Assembly: GCA_965209205.1 (NCBI GenBank)
Contig: CBDBQC010000003.1
Coordinates: forward strand, 532,433 to 596,432
Source of the DNA: Dehalococcoidia bacterium
GTDB taxonomy: Bacteria > Chloroflexota > Dehalococcoidia > Bin125
Direction of reading: 5' to 3'
Length of the DNA: 64,000 nucleotides
The position numbers and the translations under genes were made by a program. Below, in pieces: positions 1 through 37,486 of the stretch. The notes beneath the pieces are model-generated. The model saw nothing but the letters and a program-made list of their open reading frames with translations. It was not told where the DNA came from and ran no database searches. The stretch's first letter is position 1, and each line of letters opens with the position of its first letter.

Positions 1-250
1 TCGCCGCCAGGTCGTGCTCGGCGAGGCCGGTGTCGAGGCCGTTGATGCGCACGCAGAGCAGCCGGCCGCGGGCGTCGAAGCGGGGCAGCGCGGCGGCGAC
101 GGTGTCGCGGGCGGCGCCCTTGTCGTCCCAGGCGACGGAGTCTTCGAGGTCGAAGCAGATGATGTCGGCCGGCACCGCCAGCGCCTTGTCGATGAAGCGC
201 TGCTGGTTGCCGGGCACCGAGAGCATGCTGCGCAGGATGGGCGCGCTCAT
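1..250 (-). CDS. HpcH/HpaI aldolase / citrate lyase beta (CitE)-family protein, 5' part (runs off window start)
   Basis: Not in ORF track. Manual minus-strand translation from ATG at 250: MSAPILRSMLSVPGNQQRFIDKALAVPADIICFDLEDSV...LLCVRINGLDTG, with the CitE-family RSxLxVP, DLEDSV and VRIN motifs. Confidence 0.88.
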   Translation of the reverse strand, partial: MSAPILRSMLSVPGNQQRFIDKALAVPADIICFDLEDSVAWDDKGAARDTVAAALPRFDARGRLLCVRINGLDTGLAEHDLAA

Positions 251-414
251 GGGTCGGCAGCATAGCGGTCGCGCGGCGCGGGGGCCGTCAGCAGGCCGTC
301 GGGTGGACCCTCGTCGGAGCTAATGCAGTCAAACTTGAAGTTCTGGGGGGTTAACTTGAACTCGTCGGGCGGAAAGTAGAAGTTGAGATGGCCCTCGATA
401 GGTCCGGAGAGCCG

Positions 415-420
415 TAGGAT
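415..420 (+). promoter_or_regulatory. Putative -10 box (TAGGAT) for leaderless transcript of the endonuclease gene
   Basis: TAGGAT lies 6 nt before the GTG at 427 and there is no SD. The TAG at 415-417 is in frame, so the ORF cannot extend upstream. Confidence 0.5.
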
Positions 421-426
421 CACTGC

Positions 427-975
427 GTGGCTGGTTCAGGTCGTCGCAAAGTTCAGGATGACACGCGTGAGGTGACCCTCGCGCGCCTTCTGGAGTTGCA
501 GCCGAGCGAGCGTCGGATCGGGCCGGACGCGACCGATGAGAATGGGAACACATACGAACTGAAGACGACGACGACCAAGGGCCTCAGCACGGGACGAGAC
601 GTGGGGCAGCGCTTTCTCGATGGACTTCGCCAGTGCTACTTCATCGCGGCGAGGGGTCAGCAGACGACGTACGCGTTCGCGTTCGAAGAGATCTACTTCC
701 TTCACCCCGACGACCTTGAAGACTGGATTCAGGCGATCGAAGACCGGTTGCGTGATGACCTAACCGTCGTTGCGGAGGCCCTCGGAGCGCTCGAACGGGA
801 GGGCGCGGACAAGCTGAAGTTGGAGCGACTTCGCTCCATCGGCGAGCGTGGCGTCACGTTGAACAATCCGAAGATCCCATGGGCCTACGTGGAGAGCCAT
901 GGGGCACGCCTGGGCTCTACGCCGTCGGCAGACCTGCGAAGGCTAGTTGCCGAGCGTCCACTCGCTTCGTCCTAG
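427..975 (+). CDS. PvuII-family type II restriction endonuclease homologue (PD-(D/E)xK)
   Basis: PDATDENGNTYELKT..KGLST, IYFLHPDDLE and LNNPKIPWAYVESHG match R.PvuII as I recall it (NDAVDNAGQEYELKS..KGFST, IYRLEPKDLE, INNPKIPVKYVMEHG). Catalytic D34-x9-E44-x-K46 has PvuII spacing. Confidence 0.85.
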   Translation: MAGSGRRKVQDDTREVTLARLLELQPSERRIGPDATDENGNTYELKTTTTKGLSTGRDVGQRFLDGLRQCYFIAARGQQTTYAFAFEEIYFLHPDDLEDWIQAIEDRLRDDLTVVAEALGALEREGADKLKLERLRSIGERGVTLNNPKIPWAYVESHGARLGSTPSADLRRLVAERPLASS

Positions 976-1612
976 GGCGGATCGGCCGCCGATCCGCCCA
1001 GGCCTCGCATGCCGCTCTCTTCTGAGCTTCTGTCAGGGGGCGTGCGAACTCGAACAAGAAGGATGTCTTCGTGTGAAGATAGTCGGGGTTCAACTGGTCG
1101 TGACCGCCATTCCTTCGGTGCGCACTGCCATGGAGGGATCCGCCGCTCTTGCCGACCTCCGAGAAGTTGGCCGCGCGGTAGATCGTGCCTTCATGATGGA
1201 CGTCGTCTGCCCACGATACGCAGGCCGCGATGTCTGGGAGATGAGGGTACTTGCCGTGCCAATCCTGACGGATCCTGCGGAGCGATCTGCCGACGGCGCA
1301 GCTTGCGATCGAGAGCGTGTGTTCCATCCCCTGCGAGTCGGTGACTGTTTGCCCTTGCACTTCAGGGTCGATCCACAGGCGAGCCAACTCCACGAGGTTC
1401 ATCGGGCCATGGCCCTGAAATTTCACGCTGAGCCGGGGGAGGGCGAACAACAGAACCCCACAACGCTGGCCGTCCAGCAGAATCCAATAGGGCATCTGCG
1501 CCATCGTGCGACCGCGGTGGAGGTAGTGGTTCTCAACGATGACCTGAGTCGCCTCCTTCAGGTTCGCGACCTCAAGTGCGATTCGGCTGCGGAGCGTCGG
1601 GCTGGAAGTCAT
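917..1612 (-). CDS. Mom-family (phage Mu Mom-like, GNAT fold) DNA adenine modification protein, 231 aa
   Basis: Motifs IVENHYLH, GVLLFA, VELARLWI, SWAD..HEGTIYRAANF..VG typical of Mom-like proteins. Start at ATG 1612 overlaps the upstream stop (ATGA). Confidence 0.8.
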   Translation of the reverse strand: MTSSPTLRSRIALEVANLKEATQVIVENHYLHRGRTMAQMPYWILLDGQRCGVLLFALPRLSVKFQGHGPMNLVELARLWIDPEVQGQTVTDSQGMEHTLSIASCAVGRSLRRIRQDWHGKYPHLPDIAACVSWADDVHHEGTIYRAANFSEVGKSGGSLHGSAHRRNGGHDQLNPDYLHTKTSFLFEFARPLTEAQKRAACEAWADRRPIRPRTKRVDARQLAFAGLPTA

Positions 1613-1785
1613 GCTTGTTCCGCCCCGTATGGAGCCGCCTCCTCCGCGGCTCGGCGCTGTTTGCGGGGGGAATCCCAGTAGGCGCTCTTGCACCGCGGGC
1701 AGACTTTGGGCACTGCCTTGGTCCGCGGCACCCATTCGTGGCCGCACCGTTCGCACTGGTAGCCGAGGAAGCTCACCCTGCCCAT
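1609..1785 (-). CDS. Small zinc-ribbon protein (58 aa, CxxC-x14-CxxC), positionally analogous to Mu Com
   Basis: Below ORF-track cutoff. Manual translation: MGRVSFLGYQCERCGHEWVPRTKAVPKVCPRCKSAYWDSPRKQRRAAEEAAPYGAEQA*. Its TGA overlaps the ATG of the Mom-like gene. Confidence 0.85.
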   Translation of the reverse strand: MGRVSFLGYQCERCGHEWVPRTKAVPKVCPRCKSAYWDSPRKQRRAAEEAAPYGAEQA

Positions 1786-1789
1786 ACGA

Positions 1790-1810
1790 CTACTATATTA
1801 TCAGTAGTAG
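1790..1810 (-). promoter_or_regulatory. AT-rich leaderless promoter with overlapping inverted repeat CTACTA-N9-TAGTAG
   Basis: Minus strand reads cctactactgataaTATAGTagtcgtATG: -10-like TATAGT 6 nt before ATG 1785. IR arms at 1790-1795 and 1805-1810. Confidence 0.6.
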
Positions 1811-1845
1811 GCACCCGCAACGGTGTTATTGGAAAGAGCGTCCCC

Positions 1846-35662: not shown

Positions 35663-35829
35663 GGGAGCTCGCCGATGCAGGGGCCAGACGGCGACTGGGG
35701 TGGCGGAATTGCGCATCCGCCATAACGGCGCGCCGCATTCGGGTCGCGGGACGGTACACTTCGACACGTGGTGGGAACCGGTCTTCACACACCGGCCGGA
35801 CTTGATGCGGCGCGCCGCGCGCGCCGCTG

Positions 35830-35858
35830 AGGCGCCAGCCTGCGGGCCGGCGCCTTTT
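35830..35858 (+). terminator. Putative intrinsic terminator in the leader of the SWIM gene
   Basis: GGCGCCaGCC-tgcg-GGCcGGCGCC followed by TTTT. Confidence 0.5.
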
Positions 35859-35931
35859 CGTGTCCGCCGCCGTGGACGATCGCTCCCCCACTTCGGTCGG
35901 CGCAGCGGATCGGCGAGGACGGGACACCGGC

Positions 35932-36192
35932 ATGCACAGCAGTCTCATCGGCAAGATCGCCAAGGCGCGCATCTACGCGGAGGAGCGGGACCGCATCACG
36001 ATCGAATCGATCGCGTGCGAGATCCGCGGCGACAACGCCAGCCATACGGTGCAACTGCGCGAGGGCGTCTGGCAGTGCGACTGCCACTTCTTCGCCGGCT
36101 ACGACACCTGCAGCCACGCGATGGCGCTGGGGCGCATCCTCTCGGGCATGCTGCCGGCCGAGCCGGCGCTGCCCCCCGCCGCGACCGCCTAG
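35932..36192 (+). CDS. Small SWIM zinc-finger protein
   Basis: MHSSLIGKIAKARIYAEE...GDN...WQCDCHFF...TCSH (CxC...CxH). Confidence 0.85.
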   Translation: MHSSLIGKIAKARIYAEERDRITIESIACEIRGDNASHTVQLREGVWQCDCHFFAGYDTCSHAMALGRILSGMLPAEPALPPAATA

Positions 36193-36235
36193 CCCCCGCC
36201 GCAGCGGCCACGCGCCCCCGGCCCGCCCGCGGCCG

Positions 36236-37486
36236 CTACGTCGCGGCGCGGAAGACGAGGCAGGCGTTCTGCCCGCCGAAGCCGAATGAGTTGCTCAGCA
36301 CGACGCGCACCGTCGCCTCGCGCGCGACGTTGGGCACATAGTCCAGATCGCATTCGGGGTCGGGCGTCTGCTGGTTGATCGTGGGATGGATCGTCCCCGT
36401 CTCCAGGGTGCGCACGGCGGCGACGGTCTCGAAGGCGCCGGCCGCGCCGAAGCTGTGCCCGGTCATCGACTTGCTGGAGCTGATGGGCACGCGCGCCGCC
36501 GCCTCGCCCAGCGCGATCTTGATGGCCTCGGTCTCGGAGATGTCGTTGAGTGGCGTCGAGGTGCCGTGGGCGTTGATGTAGTCGATCTCCTCCGGCGCGA
36601 CGCCGGCGTCGGCCATGGCCCAGCGCATGGCCCGCACGGGGCCGGCGCCGCTGGCGTCCGGCGCGACGAGGTGCGAGGCGTCGCTGCTGCAGCCGAAGCC
36701 GGCGACCTCGGCCCGCAGCCGGGCGCCGCGACCCCGCGCGTGCGCCTCGCTCTCCAGCACCACGATGGCCGCTCCCTCGGCGGGCACGAAGCCGTCGCGA
36801 TCGGCGTCGAAGGGGCGCGACGCCGCCGCGGGGTCGTCGTTGCGACCGGTCGAGAGGGCCCGCATCACCGCGAAGCCGCTCAGCCCCAACTGGCAGAATC
36901 CGGCCTCCGTGCCGCCGCAGATCATGATGTCGGCGTCGCCGCGGCGGATCACCTCGCTGGCGTCGCCGATGGCCTGCGTGCCGGCCGCGCAGGCGGTCAC
37001 GACGGTGTTGTTGAAGCCGCCCAGCCCGAACTGCATGGCGACGTTGGCGGCGGCCATGTTGGGCAGGATGCGCGGCAGGAAGAAGGGGTCGATGCGCATG
37101 CCGCCCTTTGCGTCCAGCACGCCGGCCGCCTTCTCGACGTCGGGGAAGCCGCCGTTGCCGTTGCCCAGCAGCACGCCGATCCGTGCGCGCTCCTCCCCGT
37201 CGAGGTCGAGGCCGGCGTCCTCGATGCTCTCGCGCGTCGCGGCGACGGCGAGTTGTGAGAAGCGCGCCATGCGCCGGGCGGCCTTGCGGTCCATGTGATC
37301 ACGCGCGTCGAAGTCGCGCACCTCGCCGCCGATCCGGCAGGGGAAGCCGGTCGTGTCGAAGCACGTGATCGGGCCAATGCCGCTCTGCCCGCCGGCCAGC
37401 GCCGTCCAGAAGGCGTCGACGCCCAAGCCCAGCGGGGTCATCGCGCCCAGCCCGGTGATGAAGACGCGGGGACGGGAATCGGTCAT
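36236..37486 (-). CDS. fabF: 3-oxoacyl-ACP synthase II
   Basis: VFITGLG, TACAAG, INAHGTST, SKSMTGH, SNSFGFGGQN; true start at ATG 37486. Confidence 0.97.
   Translation of the reverse strand: MTDSRPRVFITGLGAMTPLGLGVDAFWTALAGGQSGIGPITCFDTTGFPCRIGGEVRDFDARDHMDRKAARRMARFSQLAVAATRESIEDAGLDLDGEERARIGVLLGNGNGGFPDVEKAAGVLDAKGGMRIDPFFLPRILPNMAAANVAMQFGLGGFNNTVVTACAAGTQAIGDASEVIRRGDADIMICGGTEAGFCQLGLSGFAVMRALSTGRNDDPAAASRPFDADRDGFVPAEGAAIVVLESEAHARGRGARLRAEVAGFGCSSDASHLVAPDASGAGPVRAMRWAMADAGVAPEEIDYINAHGTSTPLNDISETEAIKIALGEAAARVPISSSKSMTGHSFGAAGAFETVAAVRTLETGTIHPTINQQTPDPECDLDYVPNVAREATVRVVLSNSFGFGGQNACLVFRAAT

Follow-up and report, generated by a model that had tools for sequence, protein, structure and literature searches.

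The cassette and its island

The DNA analysed here (the window) is a 64,000-nt stretch of the genome of a Dehalococcoidia bacterium (assembly GCA_965209205.1, contig CBDBQC010000003.1, positions 532,433 to 596,432), and it carries near its start a compact cassette of three genes. These are a PvuII-like Type II restriction endonuclease gene (427..975, plus strand, start codon as given by the open reading frame (ORF) finder), a Mom-family DNA-modification gene (917..1612, minus strand, 231 amino acid (aa) residues) and, as the first cistron of an operon with the latter, a small gene (1609..1785, minus strand) encoding a 58-aa four-Cys zinc ribbon. This small gene and its protein, both called ZR below, are the subject of the present analysis. 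The ZR ORF translates as MGRVSFLGYQCERCGHEWVPRTKAVPKVCPRCKSAYWDSPRKQRRAAEEAAPYGAEQA, with its cysteines arranged as C11-x2-C14-x14-C29-x2-C32 (CERC-x14-CPRC). Positions 1609-1612 of the plus strand read TCAT, that is, ATGA on the minus strand, in which the ZR stop codon TGA (1611-1609) overlaps the ATG of the Mom-like gene (1612-1610); the translation and this overlap confirm the original prediction of a 58-aa CERC-x14-CPRC ORF coupled to the Mom-like start. The ORF is more than a chance one, because 54 database proteins match it with E-values of 5.5e-15 to 1.7e-7 and identities of 47-72%. In G001, a genome of the same genus, 172 of its 177 nt are identical, with four synonymous changes and one non-synonymous change in the tail. 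The host genome itself contains a single ZR copy (E 1.3e-25 with the hidden Markov model (HMM) of the family) and one Mom gene. Profile scans against Pfam and NCBIfam matched ZR to no helix-turn-helix (HTH) family, and only zinc-ribbon families scored; PHROGs gave nothing better than E 0.0087, and PADLOC holds a model for neither ZR nor the Mom-like protein. A homodimer prediction with two ZR copies and zinc scored 0.09 against a mark of 0.42, which gives no verdict either way.

The Mom-like ORF matches the Pfam family Mom, PF25680 (E 5.7e-14, 52.7 bits, cut-off 27.1), as well as phrog_1384, 'Mom-like DNA modification protein' (E 2.7e-13). Its identity to Mu Mom is just 21%, and 309 homologues were found, with identities of 64-97% among the 120 matches listed. 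The ORF at 427..975 matches Endonuc-PvuII, PF09225 (E 9e-7, 29.4 bits, cut-off 25), and the PADLOC model REase_II (E 2.8e-7). The two genes converge, with an overlap of their 3' ends of 59 nt (917-975). The same arrangement, with a PvuII-like endonuclease gene convergent directly behind the Mom-like gene, was present in 38 of 65 metagenome loci (L085-L143), where the Mom-like proteins are 49-78% identical; among the remaining 27, several contigs stop at or within the Mom gene. The pair looks like a cellular restriction-modification (R-M) system and suggests Mom-type adenine hypermodification as its self mark. The sequence CAGCTG fits the target consensus of Mu Mom. In the available text of two papers, Mom is reported to make N6-carbamoylmethyl-adenine from glycyl-tRNA (PMC13219725) and Mom-modified DNA to resist PvuII (PMC7261163). 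A literature search found no paper on a cassette of Mom and an endonuclease, and subscription journals may hold remarks on it. As a separate observation, in at least eight of the metagenome loci (L111, L114, L115, L119, L122, L125, L128 and L129) the Mom-like gene is preceded, on the opposite strand, by a divergent ORF of 130-147 aa that starts M..LS[IV]RQPWA. The ASCH domain was matched by all three such ORFs that were scanned, at E 2.1e-7, 3.2e-6 and, just short of the cut-off, 6.8e-4. The ORF is absent from the window, and in some cassettes of Mom and endonuclease it may serve as a third component.

Both GC content and comparison with sister species mark the endonuclease, Mom-like and ZR genes, together with their promoter, as an inserted island of ~1.46 kb (380..1845) between two host genes. 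The GC fraction is 0.575-0.66 within the island and 0.715-0.855 on either side. G001 contains the complete cassette stretch at 93% identity. In G004 the site is empty, window positions 1-282 being joined to 1846 onward with 19 nt between, and in G002 positions 1-379 are joined to 1846 onward through a 129-nt filler. At the island site, G005 carries other cargo, a DUF3800 gene, and G006 carries a STAND-type NTPase gene flanked by a repeat of window positions 267-379. The variable spot spans window positions 283-1845, with the Mom cassette present in G000 and G001, and the sister-species comparison therefore indicates an insertion (about 380-1845) at this site that includes the 60 nt upstream of ZR.

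The zinc-ribbon family and its neighbourhoods

ZR belongs to a large, sharply conserved and uncharacterised family. An alignment of 55 members (A1) yields the signature GYxCERCGHEWVPR-x5-PKVCPxCKSPYWDxPR followed by a basic tail, with 12 invariant positions (C11, E12, R13, C14, H16, W18, P20, P26, C29, C32, K33 and W37), all of which are retained in the window protein, and another ten near-invariant ones. At least 569 family loci were confirmed among 590 candidate stretches of genome contigs, distributed over many bacterial and archaeal phyla, and 387 of 482 candidates were confirmed in viral contigs. The nearest clusters in the ESM Atlas are all labelled 'hypothetical protein' and share no common Pfam family, and some homologues carry the JGI label 'predicted Zn-ribbon and HTH transcriptional regulator'. 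The literature search found no paper on this family or on a zinc-ribbon R-M regulator, with the same proviso regarding subscription journals.

The nearest sequence neighbours of the family are Zn_ribbon_8/FmdB (PF09723, TIGR02605) and the PF0610-type family (PF23470). PF09723 is touched by all 55 aligned members at E <= 1 (best 1e-6) and PF23470 by 50 of them, and the window ZR scores below the curated cut-offs (21.8 vs 34.4 bits for PF09723 and 23.6 vs 31.3 for TIGR02605; a third score in this comparison was 18.4 vs 26 bits). The nearest solved sequence relative is PF0610 (PDB 2gmg; E 0.012), which consists of a winged HTH domain and a rubredoxin-like zinc ribbon, and the alignment of 2gmg_A to ZR spans CxxC...CPKCKSxW..PR. 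Unlike the window ZR, which has no HTH, PF0610 carries a winged one, with its zinc ribbon at the C-terminus (residues 69-101 of 105), whereas in the long-form relatives of ZR the winged helix follows the ribbon. This long form, found in nine loci and comprising 115-143 aa in total, is a fusion of the ribbon to a C-terminal domain of ~70 aa, the model of which (predicted local distance difference test score, pLDDT, 78) has the topology H-H-H-beta-beta. Foldseek matched this domain to winged helices (Z-alpha, LOTUS, Fur, MarR, F93) with probabilities of 0.95-1.0 but E >= 0.056. The winged-helix-like fusion and the PF0610 relative link the family to DNA-binding proteins, and the family motif described below is present upstream of the long forms too. 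At the nine long-form loci (L013, L018, L025, L029, L037, L038, L044, L045 and L051) a conserved three-gene unit was observed, in which the long-form ZR is followed by DUF488 (~175 aa) and then by an ORF of 206-267 aa belonging to no Pfam family.

Gene neighbourhoods were compared in a sample of 80 loci from genome contigs, counting as downstream an ORF on the same strand that starts no more than 300 nt after the ZR stop. Such an ORF was present in 61 loci. By Pfam, DNA methyltransferases of at least three unrelated families account for 17 of them (PF01555, PF02384 with Eco57I/MmeI-type, and PF02086) and DUF488, always behind a long-form ZR, for nine; GmrSD and PD-(D/E)XK each follow ZR in one locus, as do PIN, Fic, TYW3, HxlR, histone and an HTH/rve transposase, and 27 downstream ORFs belong to no family. 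Commonly, ZR and the downstream ORF either overlap at stop and start (-4 nt) or are separated by 0 to 6 nt. The scan of the gene after the downstream ORF covered 69 ORFs. Convergent endonucleases lie behind the methyltransferase at L006 (MvaI/BcnI) and L009 (MjaI), and a convergent ScaI endonuclease at L007, which has no downstream ORF by the rule; an EcoO109I endonuclease is present on the same strand at L057, HsdS and a methyltransferase are the next genes at L079 and L002, respectively, and L016 and L035 have divergent upstream methyltransferases. When downstream, next and upstream genes are all counted, an R-M component occurs in 22 of the 80 loci, which is a minimum, given that endonucleases are rarely hit by Pfam. 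Loci such as L006 and L009 mark the order of ZR, modifier and convergent endonuclease as a recurrent layout, in which Mom takes the place of the methyltransferase in the window.

The tight translational coupling of ZR to its cargo, in the window and in many other loci, also fits an accessory subunit or chaperone of the modifier, acting for example in DNA targeting or inhibition, or simply a first cistron whose role is to bring ribosomes onto a leaderless mRNA, so that the cargo is translated by coupling. Zinc ribbons, moreover, often mediate protein contacts. Explanations of this kind are nevertheless quite improbable: a single 45-aa core is an implausible partner for three methyltransferase folds, GmrSD, DUF488, integrases and Mom, and an ORF serving only for ribosome entry would not retain 12 residues without change, and 10 more almost so, in bacteria, archaea and viruses alike.

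Upstream of ZR, 24 of 76 neighbouring ORFs are DDE transposases, namely 13 of PF01609, some with a SWIM finger, 10 of PF13610, which is the IS6/IS240 type, and one IS1595. All but one of the 24 are divergent from ZR, mostly at 83-169 nt from its start. An enclosing inverted repeat was found in 21 of the 80 loci vs 9 of 80 in a reverse-not-complement control. Transposase, ZR and cargo are bracketed together by long terminal inverted repeats at L008 (36 nt), L023 (63 nt), L029 (22 nt, perfect), L061 (57 nt), L079 (48 nt), L005, L039, L048, L074 and elsewhere, with two types of repeat tip, GGTTCTGT (IS6-like) and GGCTTTGCACA. Five long-repeat transposons bearing ZR were noted (L008:2588-7579, L079:1735-7435, L023:1512-5539, L061:924-3082 and L029:2231-6760), and the cargo of such elements includes Type I/IIG methyltransferases. 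These transposons resemble the passenger-gene insertion sequences (tIS) of the IS6 family in that relatives of ZR lie inside elements whose flanking inverted repeats have IS6-type tips (GGTTCTGT...), together with PF13610 transposases and cargo. They differ in that neither a zinc-ribbon gene nor R-M cargo is described in the available text of the IS6 review (PMC7986276), where ISDsp3 is the single passenger-carrying member, and in that the window island lacks a transposase.

In the viral sample of 80 loci the ZR ORF was present in 72, and 59 of those had a downstream ORF. After removal of three duplicates (L182, L228 and L232) and one false pattern match (L192), 55 downstream ORFs were scanned: seven encode DNA methyltransferases and five tyrosine integrases, the latter with gaps of 18-77 nt, SNF2 helicase, endonuclease VII, HNH, ParB_N, NUDIX and DUF5681 occur once each, and 37 belong to no family. 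The ZR proteins linked to the integrases (L163, L171, L179, L197 and L208) form a subgroup of their own, with the pattern ..PITKMGWRCxRCGHxWIPKxxGFAPAVCPKCKSPYWNRPRR, and sit 18-77 nt upstream of the tyrosine integrase, where an excisionase or regulator is usual.

With such neighbours, ZR could be a recombination or transposition accessory factor, which binds DNA to direct or restrain an integrase or transposase, and the window ZR could be a leftover of the vehicle that brought in the cassette. The frequent and divergent transposases, the terminal repeats around transposase, ZR and cargo, the xis-int-like layout of the viral loci and the location of the window island at a site with differing cargo in sister species all speak for this explanation. 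Several observations make it unlikely, however. ZR is operonic with methyltransferases and other cargo, to which it is joined by start-stop overlaps, and there are loci showing no recombinase within the flanks examined; it persists, the changes being mostly synonymous, in two species in which the island is free of recombinases; and the upstream motif of the family lies on promoters, not on element ends. Control of a transposase promoter would in addition be a controller function too, so that this explanation partly merges with the reading of ZR as an autoregulator preferred below.

Promoters, the upstream motif and the comparison with Com

The promoter/operator-like region of the island (1786..1845, minus strand) was called by hand. 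It comprises a -35 element TTGCGG (1820-1815), a 17-nt spacer and a -10 element TATAGT (1797-1792) followed by 6 nt and the ZR ATG, a geometry from which the transcript would be expected to start on the A of that ATG. The inverted repeat ACTACT (1789-1794)/AGTAGT (1803-1808) lies in the same region. The window sequence fits the pattern TTGnnn-16/18-TAnnnT-4/9-start and contains no Shine-Dalgarno-like word. Among the bacterial loci, TTGnnn-16/18-TAnnnT ending 4-9 nt before the start was found for 11 of 36 ZR genes, compared with 4 of 127 controls drawn from those loci; among the archaeal ones, 18 of 38 ZR genes have a TATA box 16-26 nt ahead of the start, compared with 4 of 114 controls. ZR promoters therefore appear to abut the start codon, which is the pattern of leaderless genes.

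The upstream regions of the family share, in addition, a short AT-rich motif. Counted on either strand, GGTATAT was present in 33 of 74 non-redundant ZR upstream regions, and AGTATAT in 40 of 74. Among 241 sequences upstream of other genes in those loci the two words occurred in 5 and 2, respectively, and among 95 AT-rich controls in 4 and 1. The family motif can be written GGTATAT/AGTAATATAC; the consensus of the Gibbs-derived matrix is approximately TAGTAATATACT, and consensus-type sites of ZR relatives include GGTATATACC. In an independent viral set, matrix scores of at least 9 bits occurred in 21 of 66 ZR upstream regions vs 9 of 332 random windows, and GGTATAT in 10 of 66 vs 2 of 332. Since the motif is seen with both transposase types, without a transposase, and with short as well as long forms, the zinc ribbon is the common denominator.

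The original prediction saw in the ZR and Mom-like genes an echo of the com-mom operon of phage Mu, with ZR perhaps an analogue of Com rather than its homologue, and named a lack of conservation next to Mom homologues as grounds for giving the idea up. A Com-like translational activator would attach to the ZR-Mom mRNA close to the Mom start and unfold a structure hiding that start, as Mu Com does for mom. There are real likenesses: Com too is a ~60-aa four-Cys ribbon (CxxC...CPRCK), and its gene lies directly upstream of a Mom-family gene and overlaps it (com 35768-35956, mom 35907-36602), as the ZR gene does through its ATGA; the basic tail of ZR could bind RNA; and hhalign of the family alignment against Mu Com aligns the two Cys knuckles. 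That alignment, however, reached a probability of just 27% over 28 columns, with 25% identity, and is confined to the knuckles. A search of the host genome with the Com family PF10122 (Zn_ribbon_Com, cut-off 22.9 bits) at E <= 10 gave no match at ZR; its two hits, both weak (E 0.23 and 0.30), lie elsewhere. Com is also absent from the families listed for ZR (best 25 of 33) and for the 55 aligned members (best 25 of 96). ZR was accordingly rejected as a Com homologue, and on this point the prediction is borne out. The RNA around the Mom start (1560-1690, minus strand) has a minimum free energy of -46.7 kcal/mol (z -0.46), and 66 of 200 shuffles fold at least as well, so that the structure signal of the Mu mom start was not found for ZR, with the limit that a small RNA element could escape this prediction.

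On that ground a pairing specific to Mom is refuted. By tblastn and by the family HMM over six frames, ZR was found in just one (L087) of the 65 metagenome Mom-like loci, or one of 52 when only loci with at least 250 nt upstream are counted, and the Mom-like HMM found no match in 160 loci with a zinc ribbon. Outside L087, both the window and G001 show the pairing. The ribbon at L087 is 52% identical to the window ZR, within the 43-65% of other aligned family members. These counts and the ordinary folding of the RNA imply that the ZR-Mom pairing is one cargo choice of a promiscuous small-protein module and is not specific to Mom; it looks like a rare recruitment, and the com-mom echo does not hold up. 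A shared mRNA target is also unlikely because the family precedes many unrelated genes, and the presence of a common DNA motif upstream of the ZR gene speaks against activation at the RNA level as well. A Com-like translational role is therefore very improbable, and the analogy with Com is superficial.

A candidate controller of the cassette

The sequence evidence favours DNA rather than RNA as the target of ZR. Because the family shares sequence traits of the HTH controller (C) proteins of R-M systems, our reading of ZR, with a confidence slightly better than even, is that of an autoregulator which binds DNA and controls the Mom/endonuclease cassette, a non-HTH analogue of C proteins. Like C.PvuII, C.AhdI, C.Esp1396I and C.Kpn2I, ZR is small and heads an operon within its cassette, and its family has a candidate conserved site just upstream of its own start. 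According to the available text of the literature, C proteins have conserved sites upstream, frequently leaderless mRNAs, and an association with R-M and other mobile-element genes (PMC2632904), and one mapped transcript of C.PvuII starts at the initiation codon (PMC2175313). Leaderless mRNAs being common among them, the start-abutting promoters predicted for the ZR family would be a further likeness. There are differences as well. C proteins have an XRE-type HTH fold and ZR a zinc ribbon, with no sequence relationship between them; C proteins usually precede the endonuclease gene, whereas ZR usually precedes the modification gene; and the C-boxes GACT-N3-AGTC are unlike the GGTATAT/AGTAATATAC of the ZR family. 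In the available text of a 2025 review (PMC12707154), C proteins are HTH proteins and a zinc-ribbon type goes unmentioned, as it does in that of the 2009 census of C proteins (PMC2632904). The original prediction placed ZR in the position of the HTH C protein of PvuII-type systems; its place in R-M loci, the start-abutting promoter and the upstream motif, all comparative findings, agree with that idea, whereas a role specific to Mom does not survive.

The following course of events can be proposed. The ZR-Mom operon would be transcribed from the promoter with its -10 element 6 nt ahead of the ATG, a spacing observed in the window, giving a leaderless mRNA if the start lies where this pattern places it. 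The Mom-like gene would then be translated by coupling through the observed ATGA overlap. ZR would bind the AT-rich motif over its own -10 element and repress the operon, with the consequence that a naive cell would receive a burst of modifier which is afterwards held down. Because the Mom-like and PvuII-like genes converge with a 59-nt overlap of their 3' ends and no terminator-like site was found in 300-1900, early strong transcription of ZR and Mom could also hold back the PvuII-like gene, through transcriptional collision or antisense RNA, for as long as ZR has not yet shut off its promoter. We infer three parts of this scheme, namely that ZR binds, in which direction it acts and that transcription interferes with the endonuclease gene. 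Such tight control would make sense because overexpression of Mom is reported to be toxic in the available text of PMC7261163. More broadly, the timing of restriction enzyme and protective modifier decides whether such cassettes can invade new cells.

A number of results weigh against the autoregulator reading. A stricter scan of 300-1900 for sigma-70 promoters called no promoter there, and no terminator either; the hand-called promoter agrees with consensus at 8 of 12 positions, and indels separate its region from the counterpart in G001 (52 of 60 positions). The window sequence upstream of ZR lacks the canonical GGTATAT and AGTATAT and shares just a TAATATA core. A matrix built from other loci gave its best hit in the 64-kb window at 1792-1805 (minus strand), on the ZR -10 element (13.0 bits, next 7.7); this hit counts in favour of the reading, with the caveat that no spot of the window is richer in AT and that at 73% GC almost any AT-rich promoter would come first. 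The family motif overlaps generic promoter words, namely the -10 box and the archaeal TATA box; the count of two or more matrix sites in 38 of the 74 regions is circular, these being the training regions; and the mean best inverted repeat in the family upstream regions was 7.5 pairs vs 7.0 in shuffles. The AlphaFold model of the 58-aa protein contains only beta strands and is weak (pLDDT 63), and a Foldseek search of the PDB with it returned generic zinc ribbons only (MCM, RpoP, ribosomal proteins and reverse gyrase; best E 0.15). ZR also appears dispensable for the enzyme pair, since 64 of the 65 other Mom-like cassettes lack it, and the transposase and integrase neighbours described above count on the same side.

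As a more tentative generalization, which we rate at somewhat less than an even chance, the family may constitute a second, non-HTH class of controllers, in which a zinc ribbon of 45-65 aa, found in bacteria, archaea and viruses, acts on GGTATAT-type operators at leaderless promoters and serves any mobile cargo, be it methyltransferases, R-M pairs, integrases or transposases. The window ZR would then time an R-M system in which a Mom-type adenine hypermodification, in place of a methyl group, protects against a PvuII-like endonuclease. If true, this would help to annotate small ORFs that now go unannotated by the hundred, mark cargo-carrying transposons and defence islets, and supply a compact, portable pair of regulator and operator.

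As to the form of such operators, inverted repeats of at least ten pairs occur in 10 of the 74 ZR upstream regions vs 6% of shuffles; a palindromic operator for the whole family is not claimed, the inverted repeats being barely above shuffles. As a separate observation, a perfect 36-bp palindrome made from the family motif, TATGTACCTTCTAGGTAT/ATACCTAGAAGGTACATA, lies at L064:3903-3938, in the interval that separates a PF01609 transposase start from ZR.

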